Numbered from the stretch's first letter, positions 9,555 to 43,578 are shown. The stretch is 64,000 bases of DNA from Flavobacteriaceae bacterium (GCA_965655805.1 CBFHJN010000002.1:3143-67142); one strand, 5' to 3'. Translations and numbers: made by a program. Notes: generated by a model not told the origin, from the sequence alone.

Positions 9555-9592
9555 CATTTATAGTGTAGGTCGACGTTTTGACTTCTGTTGAT

Positions 9593-11134
9593 TTATATTT
9601 TCAACAACCACTCTTTCACATCCACTTCTTTCTTGATAATATCGCGTAAATCGGATATCTTCACACGACTTTGTTCCATAGTATCACGATGACGGATTGT
9701 TACCGTTTGGTCTTCCAACGTGTCATGATCTACTGTAATACAAAATGGTGTTCCGTTGGCATCTTGACGCCTGTAACGTCTTCCAACGGCATCTTTTTCG
9801 TCGTAATCCATATTGAAATCCCACTTCAAATCATCAAAAATTTGACGTGCAATTTCTGGCAAACCATCCTTTTTAACCAACGGCAAAATAGCCGCTTTTA
9901 CAGGAGCTAAAACGGCTGGTAATTTTAAAACCGTTCTGGTTGTGTTATTATCCAATTCTTCTTCCACTAACGCATTAGAGAAAACAGCCAAAAACATACG
10001 ATCTAAACCAATAGAGGTTTCTAAAACATAAGGTGTATAACTCGCATTATCTTCATGATCGAAATATTGTAACTTCTTACCTGAAAACTCTTCGTGTTGT
10101 TTTAAGTCGAAATCTGTACGTGAGTGAATGCCTTCCAATTCTTTAAAGCCAAATGGGAATTTGAATTCAATATCCGTTGCAGCATCGGCATAATGGGCTA
10201 ATTTTTCATGGTCGTGGAATCGGTAATTATCGGTTCCCATACCTAATGATATATGCCATTTCATTCGGGTTTCTTTCCAATACTCAAACCATTCCATTTG
10301 TGTTCCTGGCTTGATAAAAAATTGCATTTCCATTTGTTCAAACTCACGCATTCTGAAAATAAATTGTCTCGCAACAATTTCATTTCTAAAAGCTTTACCT
10401 GTTTGTGCAATTCCAAACGGAATTTTCATACGTCCTGTTTTCTGAACATTTAAAAAGTTCACAAAAATACCTTGGGCTGTTTCTGGACGTAAATATAAAT
10501 CCATAGCATGTTCTGCAGAAGCACCGAGTTTGGTTCCAAACATGAGGTTAAATTGCTTCACATCTGTCCAATTTCTAGAACCAGTTAGTGGATCAGCAAT
10601 TTCTAATTCTTCAATTAGGGCTTTAACATCCAATAAATCTTCAGCTTCTAAAGATTTTCCCATTCTGGTTAAAATGGTCTGAATCTTTTCAAAGTAACCA
10701 ACGACTCTTGGGTTGGTACTTATAAATTCTTCTTTATTAAAAGCATCACCAAAGCGTTTTTCAGCTTTAGCAACTTCTTTATCTATTTTAGCTTCTATTT
10801 TTGCGCAGTAATCTTCGATTAAAACATCAGCACGATAACGTTTTTTAGAATCTTTATTATCTATTAACGGATCGTTAAATGCATCTACGTGACCAGAGGC
10901 TTTCCAGGTGGTTGGATGCATAAAAATGGAGGCATCAATACCAACAATATTATCATGCATTTGCACCATGGCTTTCCACCAGTAATCGCGAATGTTCTTT
11001 TTTAGTTCTGCACCATTTTGTGCATAATCATATACTGCACTTAATCCGTCGTAGATTTCACTACTTTGGAACACGTAACCATACTCCTTTGCGTGAGAGA
11101 TTACTTTTTTAAATTGATCGTCATTGTTTGCCAT
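9593..11134 (-). CDS. glyS: Glycine--tRNA ligase, alpha2 (homodimeric) type
   Basis: LRPETAQG, FRNE, REFEQMEMQ and a C-terminal anticodon-binding domain (GRRYRRQD...ITVD). Confidence 0.97.
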   Translation of the reverse strand: MANNDDQFKKVISHAKEYGYVFQSSEIYDGLSAVYDYAQNGAELKKNIRDYWWKAMVQMHDNIVGIDASIFMHPTTWKASGHVDAFNDPLIDNKDSKKRYRADVLIEDYCAKIEAKIDKEVAKAEKRFGDAFNKEEFISTNPRVVGYFEKIQTILTRMGKSLEAEDLLDVKALIEELEIADPLTGSRNWTDVKQFNLMFGTKLGASAEHAMDLYLRPETAQGIFVNFLNVQKTGRMKIPFGIAQTGKAFRNEIVARQFIFRMREFEQMEMQFFIKPGTQMEWFEYWKETRMKWHISLGMGTDNYRFHDHEKLAHYADAATDIEFKFPFGFKELEGIHSRTDFDLKQHEEFSGKKLQYFDHEDNASYTPYVLETSIGLDRMFLAVFSNALVEEELDNNTTRTVLKLPAVLAPVKAAILPLVKKDGLPEIARQIFDDLKWDFNMDYDEKDAVGRRYRRQDANGTPFCITVDHDTLEDQTVTIRHRDTMEQSRVKISDLRDIIKKEVDVKEWLLKI

Positions 11135-36172: not shown

Positions 36173-36449
36173 AGAACCTTAACCCAATAAGTACATATGT
36201 AATGTCATTAAATTATTAACGACAATACTACATCCAGTACCTATAATTCAAAAAAAAAGGAAAAACCGTGACATTTATTTATATTCCGTTAATTTTGTTT
36301 TGTAAAAATTACATAATAAACATTTTACAAGCTTTTGAATTGCATTATTTATAAAGCAATAAAAATTAGAATGAATCGTTTAAAATCAGGTTAAGCATTG
36401 CTGTCCTACTAATTGCCAAAATTTCAAAATATTCACTATCAAAAAAATT

Positions 36450-37940
36450 ATGAAACACTTTATTAAAGTACCCTTATCTATCAAAGCCTTCATGTTATGT
36501 GCTGTTATTATTTCAATAACTTTTTCCTGTGATGACGAACCCGTTGAAACCGTTGCAACGGTAACAGATTCTGATAATGATGGCATTCCTGATGATCAAG
36601 ATAATTGCCCTACTATTTCTAACCCAAATCAAGCAGATTCAAATAATGATGGTATTGGAGACGTTTGTGATACTACTGTTCCTGCTGACACAGATAACGA
36701 TGGCATTCCAGATGCTACAGATAATTGTCCAACAATAGCCAATCCGAATCAAGAAGATGATGATAATGATGGCATTGGAAATGTATGTGAAGATACACCT
36801 GCCACAACGCCTTTATTTCCTTGCGAGAACGGCATGGCTGGACCTTACCCATGTGAGGGTTATGATTTAATGAGCCATATTCCAATTCATATTATTGGAA
36901 AACCAAATGCAGAAGGTAATGATTCTTGGGGTTGGACAGACAGCACAACAGGAAACGAGTATGCACTAGTTGGTACAACACAAGGCACGGCTTTCGTAGA
37001 TATTACAGACCCTATAAATCCTATATTTCTAGGACGTTTAGCCTCTGCTAATCCTGCTGGTAACGGAAATATTTGGCGTGATGTAAAAGTATATAATGAT
37101 CATGCATTTATTGTAAGTGAGGCTAGTGGTCATGGCATGCAAGTTTTTGATTTAACAAGATTGCGCAATGTGGCAAATCCTCCTCAAAATTTCATGGCAG
37201 ACACACATTATACAGGTTTTGGTAGCGCTCACAATATTGTTATCAATGAAGATTCTGGCTATGCTTATATTGTAGGAACTAGTCGCGGTGGAACATATGC
37301 TGGAGGCCCTTTATTTATAAATATTCAAAATCCGTTAAACCCAATTAATGAAGGTGGATTTTTTGGCTACTCGCATGACGCACAGGTTTTAAATTATAAC
37401 GGTCCTGACACCGACTATAGTGGTCAGGAAATTTTAATAGGCAGTAATGAAAACGAAGTGGTTATTGTAAATGTTACCGACAAATCAAATCCTCAAATTA
37501 TATCCTCTATTGCTTATACCAATATTGGTTATACACACCAAGGTTGGTTTACGGAAAACCTGAAATATTTTATTTTGGGTGACGAAACAGATGAACAGTC
37601 ATTTGGTGGAAACACGCGAACTATTGTTTTCGATTTTACCGATTTAGACAATCCAGCATTTCATATGGATTATAATGGTCCAACTGCAGCCATCGATCAT
37701 AATGGTTATGTAAAAGATAACACCTTCTATCTTGCTAATTATTCTGCTGGTGTCCGTTTTATTGATATTTCTAATATTGGTTCAGGAACGATGACCGAAG
37801 TCGGTTATTTTGACACCTATCCAGATAATAATAGCACTAGTTTTCATGGCGCTTGGAATGTTTATCCATATTTTGCAAGCGGCAATATTGTTGTTAGTGA
37901 CATTGAAGGTGGCTTGTTTATTGTAAAAAAACAAAACTAA
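36450..37940 (+). CDS. Choice-of-anchor B / LVIVD-repeat lipoprotein with two thrombospondin type-3 repeats
   Basis: Lipobox TFSC-DDE, CENGMAGPYPC...GNDSWGW, WRDVKVY, HGMQVFDL, YTHQGW, DHNGY and GAWNVYPY. Confidence 0.85.
   Translation: MKHFIKVPLSIKAFMLCAVIISITFSCDDEPVETVATVTDSDNDGIPDDQDNCPTISNPNQADSNNDGIGDVCDTTVPADTDNDGIPDATDNCPTIANPNQEDDDNDGIGNVCEDTPATTPLFPCENGMAGPYPCEGYDLMSHIPIHIIGKPNAEGNDSWGWTDSTTGNEYALVGTTQGTAFVDITDPINPIFLGRLASANPAGNGNIWRDVKVYNDHAFIVSEASGHGMQVFDLTRLRNVANPPQNFMADTHYTGFGSAHNIVINEDSGYAYIVGTSRGGTYAGGPLFINIQNPLNPINEGGFFGYSHDAQVLNYNGPDTDYSGQEILIGSNENEVVIVNVTDKSNPQIISSIAYTNIGYTHQGWFTENLKYFILGDETDEQSFGGNTRTIVFDFTDLDNPAFHMDYNGPTAAIDHNGYVKDNTFYLANYSAGVRFIDISNIGSGTMTEVGYFDTYPDNNSTSFHGAWNVYPYFASGNIVVSDIEGGLFIVKKQN
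36567..36791 (+). repeat. Two tandem TSP3 Ca-binding repeats inside the choice-of-anchor B gene
   Basis: DSDNDGIPDDQDNCPTISNPNQADSNNDGIGDVC and DTDNDGIPDATDNCPTIANPNQEDDDNDGIGNVC. The similarity is also visible in the DNA. Confidence 0.9.
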
Positions 37941-37946
37941 AAAAAA

Positions 37947-39278
37947 GTGAAACCATACATCATAAGTTTATTCACGATACTTGTTATTTTAGGTTGTTCA
38001 TCAGATACGGATACAATTTCTGAAATCACTACAACTCCTGTGGCCATTACATCAGTTACAACTCTTGGTGGTTCTAAAAATGAGAGTGGTCAATCCGTTA
38101 TTAAAACATCAGATGGTGGTTATGCCATTTTAGGTTTCACACAAAGTATAGATGGTGATATAACTGATAAACTTACTGAAACTTATGATTATTGGGTACT
38201 GAAATTCAATATGAATCACGAGTTGCAATGGTCTAAAACCTATGGTGGATCCGGAGATGATCGTGGTGAAAAAATAGCACAAACACCAGATGGTGGCTTT
38301 GCCATTTTAGGTTATAGCAGCAGTAATGATGGTGATATAACAACAAATGCAGGCGCTCAAGATTATTGGTTAGCCAAACTCGATACTAACGGAAATTTAT
38401 TGTGGCAAAAATCATATGGTTATATAGGTTCTGATCGTGGAACAACTATGATAATAACTAATGATGGTGGTTTTTTTATAACAGGAATTTTAGATGTTTC
38501 GGCATCTGGTGGTGCTGGAAATACTAAAAATGCTAGTTCCAAGCATGCAGGAGGCGATTATTGGGCTTTAAAATTAGACAGTCAAGGCACCATTGAATGG
38601 AGCAAATATTATGGCGGCAGTTTCACAGACTCTCCTTTTGATGCCATCCAAACAAACGATGGCGAATATATTATTGTTGGTTCATCAGATAGCGATGATG
38701 TAGATATCACCAATAATATTGGAGATTATGATTTTTGGGTGATAAAAATTTCTAACTCGGGAGCTATTATTTGGGAGAAAAACTTTGGAGGAACTCAAAT
38801 AGATGAAGCGCGTGGTATTGTTGATTCGGGTGACGGAAATTTCCTAATTATTGGCGACACACGTAGTAGTGATATTCAAATTTCCAATAATAAAGGAGCC
38901 GCAGATTTATGGCTCATAAAAATAACACCTTCAGGAAATCTTATTTGGGAAAAAACCTTTGGTGGTAGCAGTTTTGATGCTGGACGCTCAATTTCAAAAA
39001 CAAACAACAATAACTTCATTATATCTGGTAGTTCCCGAAGCACTGATGGTAATTTATCAAACAACAATGGTCGAAATGATGCCTGGATACTGAAAGTCGA
39101 TTCCAATGGAACAATCATTAACCAAAAAACAGTAGGTGGATTGGCAATTGACTATTGCTACAGCGCAATTGAATTAGACGACAGCACCATTATTGCTGTT
39201 GGCGAAACGAGTAGTGCTGAAGGTGATATTTTAGAAAATAAAGGATTTACAGACTTGTTAGTAATAAACATAAAATGA
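37947..39278 (+). CDS. Beta-propeller repeat lipoprotein of unknown function
   Basis: GTG start, lipobox ILGC-SSD, and about seven ~55-aa repeats (W.K.YGGS..D....T.DGG....G...D.W..K.D..G). Confidence 0.8.
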   Translation: MKPYIISLFTILVILGCSSDTDTISEITTTPVAITSVTTLGGSKNESGQSVIKTSDGGYAILGFTQSIDGDITDKLTETYDYWVLKFNMNHELQWSKTYGGSGDDRGEKIAQTPDGGFAILGYSSSNDGDITTNAGAQDYWLAKLDTNGNLLWQKSYGYIGSDRGTTMIITNDGGFFITGILDVSASGGAGNTKNASSKHAGGDYWALKLDSQGTIEWSKYYGGSFTDSPFDAIQTNDGEYIIVGSSDSDDVDITNNIGDYDFWVIKISNSGAIIWEKNFGGTQIDEARGIVDSGDGNFLIIGDTRSSDIQISNNKGAADLWLIKITPSGNLIWEKTFGGSSFDAGRSISKTNNNNFIISGSSRSTDGNLSNNNGRNDAWILKVDSNGTIINQKTVGGLAIDYCYSAIELDDSTIIAVGETSSAEGDILENKGFTDLLVINIK

Positions 39279-40045
39279 AAAAAATCATATCTATATTAGT
39301 TTTGTCACTTGTTATGCTGTCATGTACAGATGATAATGACGATAATTTATCTCCTCCACAACCTCAAGCGGAAATAACATTTAATTTTACTCATAATTGG
39401 GATGAAACTACCATCAATAGTAGTAATCTTCAATCCGAAACCGTTACGAACGCCAATGGTGAAATTATGACAATGACGAGATTACGCTACTTGGTATCAC
39501 GTTTAGAATTAACCAATTCAAACGGACAAACATATAGTTTTGATGGGTATAAGTTTACCGATTTATTGGATGAAGCCACCTATAACTTTTCACCTGTAAA
39601 TAATAGTATTCCAATTGGAACGTACACCTTAAAATTTATATGGGGATTTAATGAGACAGATAACACAGATGGTGCCTATCCAGATTTAAATAGTGCCTCA
39701 TGGAATTGGCCTGCTATGTTAGGTGGTGGTTACCACTTTATGCAACTCGACGGCATGTATAATTTAGACACAACTGGAATGCCTTATAATTTTCACAATG
39801 GAACCGCTCGTGTAAGTCCAGATGTTTTTGAGCAGAATTTTGCCGAAATATTACTGCCAACTACAATAAACATTACAAACAACGCAACTATTGAAGTAAA
39901 AATGAATATTGCCGAATTCTTTAAAAACCCAAACACTTGGGATTTAAATGTATTGGACACGCCATTAATGCCTAATTATGATGCACAAAAAATGATGCAG
40001 GCTAATGTGGCAACGGTATTTTCAATAGGAACCATTTCACAATAA
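39275..40045 (+). CDS. mbnP: MbnP-family putative copper-binding lipoprotein
   Basis: Lipobox MLSC-TDD, motif SWNWPAMLGGGYHFMQL (WxW at 39701-39709), FHNG. ATGA overlap with the upstream gene, and directly upstream of an MbnH-like gene. Confidence 0.75.
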   Translation: MKKIISILVLSLVMLSCTDDNDDNLSPPQPQAEITFNFTHNWDETTINSSNLQSETVTNANGEIMTMTRLRYLVSRLELTNSNGQTYSFDGYKFTDLLDEATYNFSPVNNSIPIGTYTLKFIWGFNETDNTDGAYPDLNSASWNWPAMLGGGYHFMQLDGMYNLDTTGMPYNFHNGTARVSPDVFEQNFAEILLPTTINITNNATIEVKMNIAEFFKNPNTWDLNVLDTPLMPNYDAQKMMQANVATVFSIGTISQ

Positions 40046-40053
40046 ACATAAAT

Positions 40054-41124
40054 ATGAATAAATTATTAACATACACACTTGTCATTTGTTGCGCTTTTTT
40101 AACGAGTTGCAATGACGAAAGTATGGAGACCTATGTTAATAAACCCACAGCCCAACCATTACCTATTCCAACATTATTTGAGCAACTCTTAATCAATCCT
40201 ATCATTCCAATTGATAATCCGCAGACAGTTGAAGGTATTGCTCTGGGGAAAAAATTATTTTTTGATCGCATACTTTCTGCTAACAATACACAAGCCTGCG
40301 CCTCTTGCCACAGTCCAAGAAATGCTTTTACAGATAACTCCCAATTTAGTGATGGAATTGATGGTATTTTTGGAACCAGAAACTCGATGCCTTTGTTTAA
40401 CCTAGCGTGGAATTATGACGAAAATTTCTTTTGGGATGGTCATGCTTTTAGTTTGGAACATCAAGCCCTAGAACCTGTTGAAAACCCTATAGAAATGCAC
40501 AATACTTGGGAAACTGTTATTTCCAGACTCCAACAGCACCCTGAATATCCAAATCTTTTTACTGCTGCTTTTGGCGAAGGTGCTATTAATAGAGAAAAAG
40601 CAACCAAAGCCATTGCGCAATTTGAACGCACGCTAATTTCAGCTAACTCCAAATTTGATAAATATTTATTAGGTGAGGCCACATTAACACCTCAAGAAAC
40701 CAACGGTTTAAACGTTTTTATGGACGAAACACGAGGCGACTGTTTTCATTGTCATGGGAACGCAAATAACCCCTTATGGACTGATAATATGTTTCATAAT
40801 AACGGGCTGGATGCTACCTTTTCAGATTTAGGATTAGGTGCTGTAACTGGCGATCCTTCGGATAATGGCAAATTTAAATCGCCTTCGCTTCGTAATTTAG
40901 CCTATACAGCTCCTTACATGCATGATGGTCGGTTTCTTACTTTAGATGATGTCATCAATCACTACAGTGAAGGTTTACAAAACTCACCAACCATAGATCC
41001 CTTGATGAAAAAAGTAGCCCAAGGCGGTGTGCAATTAACCGATCAAGATAAAGCGGATTTAAAAGCTTTTTTACTCACATTATCCGATCCGTCTTTTATA
41101 AATAATCCAGAATTTCAAAATTAA
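40054..41124 (+). CDS. mbnH: Di-heme bCcP/MauG-superfamily protein, MbnH-like lipoprotein
   Basis: CASCH and CFHCH, GKKLFFD, RNSMPL, FFWDG and FKSPSLRNL...PYMHDG. Lipobox LTSC-NDE. Confidence 0.85.
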   Translation: MNKLLTYTLVICCAFLTSCNDESMETYVNKPTAQPLPIPTLFEQLLINPIIPIDNPQTVEGIALGKKLFFDRILSANNTQACASCHSPRNAFTDNSQFSDGIDGIFGTRNSMPLFNLAWNYDENFFWDGHAFSLEHQALEPVENPIEMHNTWETVISRLQQHPEYPNLFTAAFGEGAINREKATKAIAQFERTLISANSKFDKYLLGEATLTPQETNGLNVFMDETRGDCFHCHGNANNPLWTDNMFHNNGLDATFSDLGLGAVTGDPSDNGKFKSPSLRNLAYTAPYMHDGRFLTLDDVINHYSEGLQNSPTIDPLMKKVAQGGVQLTDQDKADLKAFLLTLSDPSFINNPEFQN

Positions 41125-41243
41125 ACTTCGTGCCATTCTATCCTTTTTAGCCGTATGGCGATTAGCATATTTTCATAACTTTTGTCTATACACATATCTG
41201 TTAATATCATGTAAGGTTATATGGTAATCCATGACTTATATTG

Positions 41244-41251
41244 TATATTTG
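41244..41251 (+). promoter_or_regulatory. -7 element (TATATTTG) of the suf operon
   Basis: Exact motif. The track TTG start at 41241 overlaps it, which supports ATG 41283. Confidence 0.7.
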
Positions 41252-41256
41252 CATAC

Positions 41257-41277
41257 TATTTAGAGCAAATCTAATTA
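41257..41277. promoter_or_regulatory. Fur-like operator over the suf transcription start
   Basis: TAT-TTAGA-GCAAA-TCTAA-TTA, a perfect TTAGA-N5-TCTAA inverted repeat starting 5 nt after the -7 element. Confidence 0.6.
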
Positions 41278-43146: not shown

Positions 43147-43578
43147 ATGAAAAAAACAGCCATTCTTTTACTATTATCTATTGTTTTTATTAGTTGTAAA
43201 AATGATAGCAAAAGCGAAGAAACAACCACAAAAACGGAATCTATTGATTTGGATGGTCCTAATAGAACAGCAAAACAAAGTGACGGACTTACCTTATTAA
43301 AAGGTGAATTTGTTTATTATGAAGATGCAGCCGTTCTACAAACACATCGTGAAGTATACGGTGTTGTTTTAGATGATAAAATGACCGAACTTAATAAAAT
43401 GGCTGAAGCCTATAAAAAAGAACCAACAGATTACGCAACGGTTTCTATCCGTGGCAAAATTATACCCAAACCAGAAAACGAAGAAGGCTGGCCTTTTCGT
43501 GTAGAAATAAAAGAAATTTTAAGTGTTTCAGCTTCAAATCCTGAAACGAATAATGTAGTAAAATTGGAATCCAAATAA
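43147..43578 (+). CDS. Lipoprotein inserted between sufB and sufC, possibly with an NlpE C-terminal OB-fold-like domain
   Basis: Lipobox FISC-KND. LKGEFVYYEDAAVL...VSIRGKI resembles the NlpE_C start. One nt separates its stop from the sufC ATG. Confidence 0.65.
   Translation: MKKTAILLLLSIVFISCKNDSKSEETTTKTESIDLDGPNRTAKQSDGLTLLKGEFVYYEDAAVLQTHREVYGVVLDDKMTELNKMAEAYKKEPTDYATVSIRGKIIPKPENEEGWPFRVEIKEILSVSASNPETNNVVKLESK

Follow-up and report, generated by a model that had tools for sequence, protein, structure and literature searches.

The window analysed here is a 64,000-nucleotide (nt) stretch of DNA from a Flavobacteriaceae bacterium (GCA_965655805.1, CBFHJN010000002.1:3143-67142), a marine Bizionia species, and at positions 36450-41124 of its plus strand it carries an operon of four lipoprotein genes (hereafter, G1 to G4). 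The operon is a variant that joins two propeller proteins, probably displayed at the cell surface, to a divergent MbnP/MbnH pair, and it is not a standard copper system; its function is predicted from sequence. The open reading frame calls and family scans identified G1 (36450-37940; 496 amino acids, aa) as a lipoprotein with thrombospondin type-3 (TSP3) repeats and a choice-of-anchor-B propeller, G2 (37947-39278; 443 aa, GTG start) as a lipoprotein of about seven SBBP/CylK-like beta-propeller blade repeats, G3 (39275-40045; 256 aa) as a divergent lipoprotein with a predicted MbnP fold, and G4 (40054-41124; 356 aa) as an MbnH/MauG-type di-haem lipoprotein. An earlier reading of this DNA (hereafter, the original prediction) had described four tightly packed, co-directional genes, and the gaps of 6, -4 and 8 nt were verified from the open reading frames. 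Automatic annotation already names the genes (for example, 'MbnP family protein'), and no description of the operon architecture or of its degenerate MbnP motif was found in the literature searched.

Among named homologs, those nearest to G3 belong to Bizionia echini, B. myxarmorum and Hanstruepera. When 40 relatives were examined, the block was present in seven of the eight genomes of the genus (the window's included) and in four other genera of the family. A scan of the genome collection with a G2 alignment returned 571 relatives, from which the best 80 loci were taken, one per species. These loci span about 20 named marine Flavobacteriaceae genera, including Bizionia, Hanstruepera, Formosa, Algibacter, Flaviramulus, Seonamhaeicola, Flavivirga, Winogradskyella, Lacinutrix, Wocania, Olleya, Tamlana, Mangrovimonas, Jejuia and Hyunsoonleella. 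Barring cuts at contig ends, the gene order was the same in all 80: thiL on the minus strand, then one to three copies of G1, G2, G3 and G4, followed by sufA, sufB, a lipoprotein gene, sufC and sufD. The median gaps were 10 nt between G1 and G2, 2 nt between G2 and G3, and 6 nt between G3 and G4 (the last in 77 loci); the tightest junction is thus that of G2 and G3, which overlap by 4 nt in 16 of the 80 loci. G2 always follows G1, and G3-G4 never occurs without G1-G2 in this set. As both the order and the tight spacing recur in 80/80 related loci, the operon is more than a chance arrangement. The check on propeller-gene synteny that accompanied the original prediction thereby came out in its favour, with G1 and G2 kept in place throughout.

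A congeneric genome that is 99% complete (G006) lacks G1, G3 and G4, and its thiL lies about 370 nt from sufA. Given that the suf genes are intact beside this empty junction, the four genes are a dispensable unit, none of which is needed by suf. We conclude that they form one genuine conserved operon, gained or lost together. The vacant site itself (L152, G006:C4:117001-137000, at about 9556-9925) is either a natural deletion or an empty site. A relative of G2, 54% identical to that of the window, was also encountered on a contig (L120, CAXPPN010000032.1) labelled 'MAG: Aeromicrobium sp.', an actinobacterium; it ranks among the flavobacterial loci, and the contig is probably mis-binned.

G3 is predicted to have the MbnP fold. 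It matched the Pfam MbnP family PF20243 at 90.2 bits (cut-off 27), with residues 32-224 aligned over profile positions 2-181 of 189. In its AlphaFold2 model (pLDDT 86), the six chains of the MbnP structure 7L6G were the only PDB fold matches with E <= 0.001 (probability 1.0, TM 0.49-0.57, about 13% identity). Searches of the PDB sequences with G3 as a single sequence or as a whole-length profile gave no match. It took a profile built on the middle part of typical Bacteroidota MbnPs to reach the 7L6G sequence (E 3e-4), and their C-terminal profile found no match to 7L6G, so that the Met ligand and the HxH region are unplaced. G3 evolves faster than the other three proteins; its identity between genera is 36-44%, versus 62-72% for G4.

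According to a review, the copper ligands of MbnP are a His, a Met, a solvent ligand and Kyn174, a kynurenine that MbnH makes from the first Trp of a WxW motif. Typical Bacteroidota MbnPs have an invariant M-x-W-x-W-N-x-G-Y motif and a downstream YH-x-GG His, which align with 'GMAWNWQAG' and 'MVHVG' of 7L6G, respectively. The original prediction held that MbnP keeps the WxW motif here, and W143-N-W145 is indeed read at 39701-39709 (plus strand); however, the motif is not conserved in the subfamily. The window's loop is A141-S-W143-N-W145, with Ala where typical MbnPs and 7L6G have Met, and the loop of the G3 subfamily reads [A/T/V]-S-[W/F]-N-[V/W]-P-x-M-L-G-G-G-Y-H. Across 80 sequences (the window's and 79 relatives), position 143 is Trp in 57 and Phe in 23, position 145 is Val in 63 and Trp in 17, and the complete W-x-W is kept in the window and in 16 of the 79 relatives. 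The Phe143 variants are mainly from Winogradskyella and Seonamhaeicola; 22 of the 23 loci include the neighbouring gene, and all 22 keep an MbnH with every haem feature. The proposal that a Trp is converted to kynurenine to form the copper site is therefore not supported for the subfamily, since Phe occupies position 143 in 23/80, the Met is replaced by Ala and the MbnH of the Phe variants is intact. Judged from these alignments, the conserved mechanism of the subfamily cannot be a copper site that relies on kynurenine made from Trp143.

Other residues of the G3 subfamily are under much tighter conservation. H40, W42, Y153, H154, H174, W222, M232 and N234 are 98-100% conserved, and H174 is the family-wide His that aligns with the His of 'MVHVG' in 7L6G. 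Two further features of typical Bacteroidota MbnPs, a second conserved His and an HxHN at the C terminus, are missing from the G3 subfamily, in addition to the invariant Met missing from G3. This pattern of losses and retained residues suggests that the metal site has probably been rebuilt in the subfamily.

G4 is best placed, from its motifs and closest matches, as a di-haem enzyme of the MauG/MbnH branch with the Tyr-ligand position kept. It matched CCP_MauG at 201.6 bits (cut-off 25.6), its best NCBIfam match was the MbnH family TIGR04039, ahead of MauG at 188.5 bits, and its best PDB match was MbnH 6E1C (3.4e-54), with classical peroxidases and MauG ranking lower. The two CxxCH motifs that had been claimed for the MbnH-like protein are present on the plus strand as C82ASCH (40297-40311) and C230FHCH (40741-40755). 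Its 'NHYSEG' segment aligns with 'IYSEGG' of 6E1C, which puts Y304 at the Tyr position of MbnH. We take this position to be that of the axial Tyr haem ligand of MauG and MbnH, with a Met there in classical peroxidases. All 77 sequences compared (the window's and 76 relatives) have both CxxCH motifs, the inter-haem W119 and Y304. G4 has no paralog and is the sole CCP/MauG-family gene of the genome, and it is unlikely to be an ordinary peroxidase. G3 and G4 are adjacent and co-directional, 8 nt apart, and in this respect make up an MbnP/MbnH pair.

MbnP/MbnH pairs are widespread, yet to our knowledge the only biochemical characterisation comes from a methanotroph, in which kynurenine formed from a Trp creates a Cu(I) site. 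The methanobactin-operon MbnP/MbnH of Methylosinus trichosporium OB3b (7L6G, 6E1C; PF20243, TIGR04052/TIGR04039) is the same adjacent pair of fold and enzyme as G3-G4, with the family-wide His shared by MbnP and G3 and the Tyr position shared by MbnH and G4. In contrast to OB3b, the neighbourhood of the present operon is free of methanobactin, TonB transporter and copper genes, G3 and G4 are both lipoproteins, the M-x-W-x-W loop is degenerate and the pair is joined to two propeller genes. In agreement with the original prediction, the surrounding DNA, out to about 8 kb, contains neither a TonB-dependent receptor gene nor one for methanobactin biosynthesis.

The same prediction took MbnP/MbnH to be usually found beside a TonB transporter, and this was not the case in the Bacteroidota loci that we inspected (L125:3851-9334, L127, L130, L133, L136 and L032-L037). 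There, a recurring cassette consists of a small membrane protein of about 125 aa with a C-x-N-K-x-x-P-x-x-x-C-x-G-K-C motif, MbnP, MbnH, and a protein of about 300-330 aa that starts 'ACDxCGC' (the CDxCGC protein). The flanking proteins scanned had no Pfam or NCBIfam match. In L125, the cassette is followed by SCO1/SenC and cytochrome c genes, as found in a Pfam scan, and the gene order of L127 is identical. Given that the neighbours of MbnP/MbnH genes in the Bacteroidota loci inspected are these Cys-motif membrane and CDxCGC proteins rather than TonB transporters, the missing TonB gene is not special within the phylum. G3 and G4 share with the typical Bacteroidota pairs a lipidated Cys followed by acidic residues, and G4 is 40-52% identical to their MbnHs; they differ in lacking the small membrane protein and the CDxCGC protein, with the propellers in place instead.

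Turning to the propellers, G1 matched the choice-of-anchor-B family TIGR04312 at 541.6 bits (cut-off 100) over profile positions 1-364 of 364, and TSP_3 (PF02412) at 65.3 bits (cut-off 25) in two stretches; a match to COMP/thrombospondin was found at 1e-31. The two TSP3 calcium-binding repeats lie at about 36564-36794 and the choice-of-anchor-B/LVIVD-type seven-bladed beta-propeller at about 36819-37931 (both plus strand), and the number of TSP3 repeats varies from 0 to 5 among G1 orthologs. H261, H309/D310, H363, E379 and H417/N418 (numbering of the full-length protein) do not vary among 28 choice-of-anchor-B domains sharing 30-90% identity with that of the window, and the His residues occupy an 'xHx' motif on successive blades. 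The AlphaFold2 model of G1 (pLDDT 91) had as its top fold match 5HRM (E 1.5e-10, TMq 0.66), ahead of generic WD40 proteins. In the PDB, 5HRM and 5IOJ were the sole matches of the choice-of-anchor-B profile (E 7e-6), with H261 aligned to the His of their 'NIH' blade motif. These structures are of the Sphingobium sp. TCM1 phosphotriesterase/haloalkylphosphorus hydrolase, a binuclear-metal seven-bladed propeller of a type with a central His/Glu metal site. G1 has His on four successive blades together with an invariant Asp and Glu; unlike the hydrolase, G1 is predicted to be surface-anchored, bears TSP3 repeats and has no phosphate-pathway genes nearby, and the two are only about 13% identical. 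G1 may thus plausibly be a metal-centred enzyme and not a mere scaffold. The choice-of-anchor-B family is very large, and no published function for it was found in the literature searched.

G2 scored 48.2 bits against the SBBP/LipL53 family NF047494, below its cut-off of 400, which fits no more than a related type of propeller repeat, and its residues 136-390 matched the CylK propeller (7FH6/7RON) at 1.4e-24 in the PDB. Invariant Gly, Asp and Trp columns recur with the periodicity of the repeats. The C-terminal beta-propeller of CylK is similar to G2, whereas the N-terminal calcium-binding domain of CylK is absent, and the likeness may reflect blade-repeat similarity only.

All four products were said to have a lipobox followed by acidic residues, and these were read directly in the sequence: G1 ..TFS-C27-DDEP, G2 ..ILG-C17-SSDTD, G3 ..MLS-C17-TDDNDD and G4 ..LTS-C19-NDESM. 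The Bacteroidota lipoprotein export signal is a polar residue followed by at least two acidic residues at +2 to +6 after the lipidated Cys (PMC5080379). The signal is found in all four (CDDEP, CSSDTD, CTDDND and CNDESM) and is kept in the orthologs. Choice-of-anchor-B homologs carry alternative anchors, either a lipobox or a type IX secretion system (T9SS) sorting domain. Although most G1 orthologs are lipoproteins, about 10 of 90 start with a type-I signal peptide (..SQTPC) and end in a T9SS sorting domain that scores above the TIGR04183 cut-off. Because the orthologs alternate between two anchors that both lead to the surface, G1 is predicted to be located there. The module of four lipoproteins would sit in the outer membrane and is probably surface-exposed. 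Some species (L049, Hanstruepera flava; L028; L075; L059) carry two or three tandem G1 paralogs with differing anchors, i.e., a T9SS sorting domain, a plain lipoprotein, or a lipoprotein with TSP3 repeats.

The two halves of the operon are not always found together. In two other genera (G333 and G329), the junction reads thiL, G1, G2, sufABCD, with neither G3 nor G4, and in G154 a T9SS-type G1 stands alone. There was no Pfam MbnP match in any of these three, and no MbnH-like gene anywhere in the genomes of G154 and G329. Given the occurrence of G1-G2 without G3-G4 in other genera, the MbnP/MbnH pair appears to be an add-on to a G1-G2 module, to which it is closely tied in the present clade. 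It follows that the propellers, suggested earlier as additional substrates of MbnH, are not obligate ones, since G1-G2 occurs at the thiL-suf junction without MbnP/MbnH and, in G329, in a genome without an MbnH-like gene. In G333 (L040:11699-14623), an extra gene is inserted between thiL and G1, and its 973-aa product combines cytochrome c, PA14 and DUF7133 domains. Adjacency was also searched for in 300 sampled Bacteroidota genomes, for which the better-scoring choice-of-anchor-B matches were listed, and in a full re-scan of 14 genomes that hold both families. Outside the Flavobacteriaceae, no choice-of-anchor-B gene was next to MbnP among the matches listed from the 300 genomes or in the 14-genome re-scan.

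The operon is flanked upstream by genes for a branched-chain amino-acid carrier and an alpha/beta hydrolase and by thiL, and downstream by sufA, sufB, a 143-aa lipoprotein gene, sufC, sufD and sufS. About 150 nt upstream of the G1 ATG is a candidate Bacteroidota-type -7 promoter box, TAATTTTG (36290-36297, plus strand). When eight Bizionia and Hanstruepera loci were compared, TTAATTTTGT was the sole conserved block in the thiL-G1 spacer; it resembles TAnnTTTG, which we take to be the Bacteroidota -7 consensus. A scan for sigma-70 promoters and terminators gave only background-level matches and was set aside.

At the other end, a conserved block at 41221-41274 (plus strand), the predicted promoter/operator region of suf, marks the 3' boundary of the operon. 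Within this suf leader are a palindrome, ATGGTAATCCAT (41221-41232), a -7 box, TATATTTG (41244-41251), and TTAGAGCAAATCTAA (41260-41274), all on the plus strand, and the block is likely to be the operator of some suf regulator. Bizionia and Hanstruepera share an almost unchanged sequence over the final ~90 nt ahead of sufA, whereas the remainder of the spacer between G4 and sufA varies from 106 to 2616 nt. A conserved block next to a variable spacer indicates that suf has its own promoter and operator. A suf-type TTAGA-N5-TCTAA box was absent upstream of G1, and the two matches in the window are at chance level. A functional operon with suf was considered and rejected, given the conserved suf promoter and the thiL-sufA junction of G006. 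Of the link to suf in the original prediction, the position directly upstream stands and the functional tie does not, on the same two grounds. We infer that the adjacency reflects conserved synteny, not co-transcription. The 143-aa lipoprotein gene between sufB and sufC (43147-43578, plus strand) keeps its position across many genera at 35-88% identity, and the sole match of its product was a weak, sub-threshold one to the NlpE C-terminal OB domain.

Taken together, we favour, with moderate confidence, a dispensable surface accessory operon in which G4 modifies G3 at a remodelled, non-canonical site and the pair serves the propeller module. G4 would oxidatively modify its dedicated partner G3 by way of a peroxide-derived high-valent haem, as MbnH does with MbnP. 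The remodelled site, predicted from conservation, would comprise H174 with M232, H154 and H40, the aromatic residue oxidised being most likely W42 or W222, and would not be the canonical Met-x-Trp(Kyn)-x-Trp loop; by homology, its metal would most likely be copper. As an add-on, the MbnP/MbnH pair would serve the propellers, perhaps by taking up metal at the surface, buffering it or passing it to the G1 centre, and would not be required for propeller maturation. A more specific version, which we consider speculative and hold with low confidence, is a surface metalloenzyme: G1 would be a His-lined, metal-dependent enzyme whose metal is fed or protected by a kynurenine-independent MbnP/MbnH pair, with MbnH oxidising W42 or W222, say, and so building a new protein-derived site outside the outer membrane.

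Several observations weigh against the favoured explanation of a surface accessory operon. Neither member of the pair reaches the NCBIfam cut-off of its family: G3 scored 18.6 bits against TIGR04052 (MbnP_like_WxW; cut-off 140), for which a typical Flavobacteriales MbnP (L032) also falls short at 51.5 bits, and G4 scored 272.1 bits against TIGR04039 (cut-off 362.85). The equivalence of W143 and Kyn174 rests on a 4-residue insertion for which MAFFT gives two registers, and the WNW loop has the lowest confidence in the G3 model. As for location, about 32% of the heuristically predicted lipoproteins in the genome have at least two acidic residues at +2 to +6, so that the signal in four of four is only modestly unusual (~0.01 if independent); for G1, surface display has independent support from the alternation of T9SS and lipobox anchors. 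A c-type di-haem enzyme exposed at the surface would also be unusual. Finally, G1-G2 and typical MbnP/MbnH pairs are each found alone, and the two halves could be independent neighbours.

This last point leads to the alternative of two uncoupled modules that share a promoter or merely a neighbourhood: surface propellers acting as enzyme or adhesin, and an MbnP/MbnH metal pair complete in itself. The existence of G1-G2 alone in some genera, of typical MbnP/MbnH loci without a choice-of-anchor-B gene nearby, and the lack of adjacency outside the Flavobacteriaceae among the matches listed and in the 14 re-scanned genomes would all fit such an arrangement, but G2-G3, where the two modules meet, is the tightest junction, the G006 site is empty of the whole unit, the remodelling of the G3 motif coincides with the association with G1-G2, and G3-G4 was never without G1-G2 in the 80 loci. 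We consider uncoupled modules improbable. A canonical copper system, in which MbnH turns Trp143 to kynurenine to form a Cu(I) site of the 7L6G type and the propellers are partners or extra substrates, could be argued from the W-x-W kept in the window and 16/79 relatives, the predicted MbnP fold of G3, the nearness of G4 to MbnH, and one alignment in which WNW pairs with the typical Bacteroidota WxW, itself aligned to 'AWNW' of 7L6G. However, Phe, which is incapable of yielding kynurenine, is at position 143 in 23/80 with MbnH intact, the Met two residues before the Trp is Ala in the window, the second His and C-terminal HxHN are absent, the TIGR04052 score is far below its cut-off, and the propellers occur in genomes without any MbnH. 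We therefore view the canonical system as doubtful.

We regard as very unlikely a role tied to suf in oxidative stress or iron supply, with G4 as a periplasmic peroxidase and the cluster aiding Fe-S assembly through iron capture or protection from copper or peroxide. The location immediately upstream of sufABCD in every complete locus and the status of G4 as the only CCP/MauG gene speak for it, but suf has its own promoter/operator, the spacer is variable, no TTAGA-N5-TCTAA box precedes G1, and thiL abuts sufA in the congeneric species with intact suf. At the distal haem-ligand position, as assigned in MauG and MbnH, G4 moreover has Tyr304 and not Met.

Members of the genus can do without the cluster, and for as long as it lacks an assigned phenotype or activity its practical value is modest. 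Natural Trp/Phe variants, together with species that have G1-G2 only, make the questions raised here directly testable, with G006 as a useful comparison strain. For MbnH-type enzymes, the natural Trp-to-Phe MbnP variants that retain an intact MbnH offer a direct test of whether there are other targets or products. For the choice-of-anchor-B family, the probable surface location, the invariant four-His centre and the kinship to a binuclear-metal hydrolase provide a functional lead.

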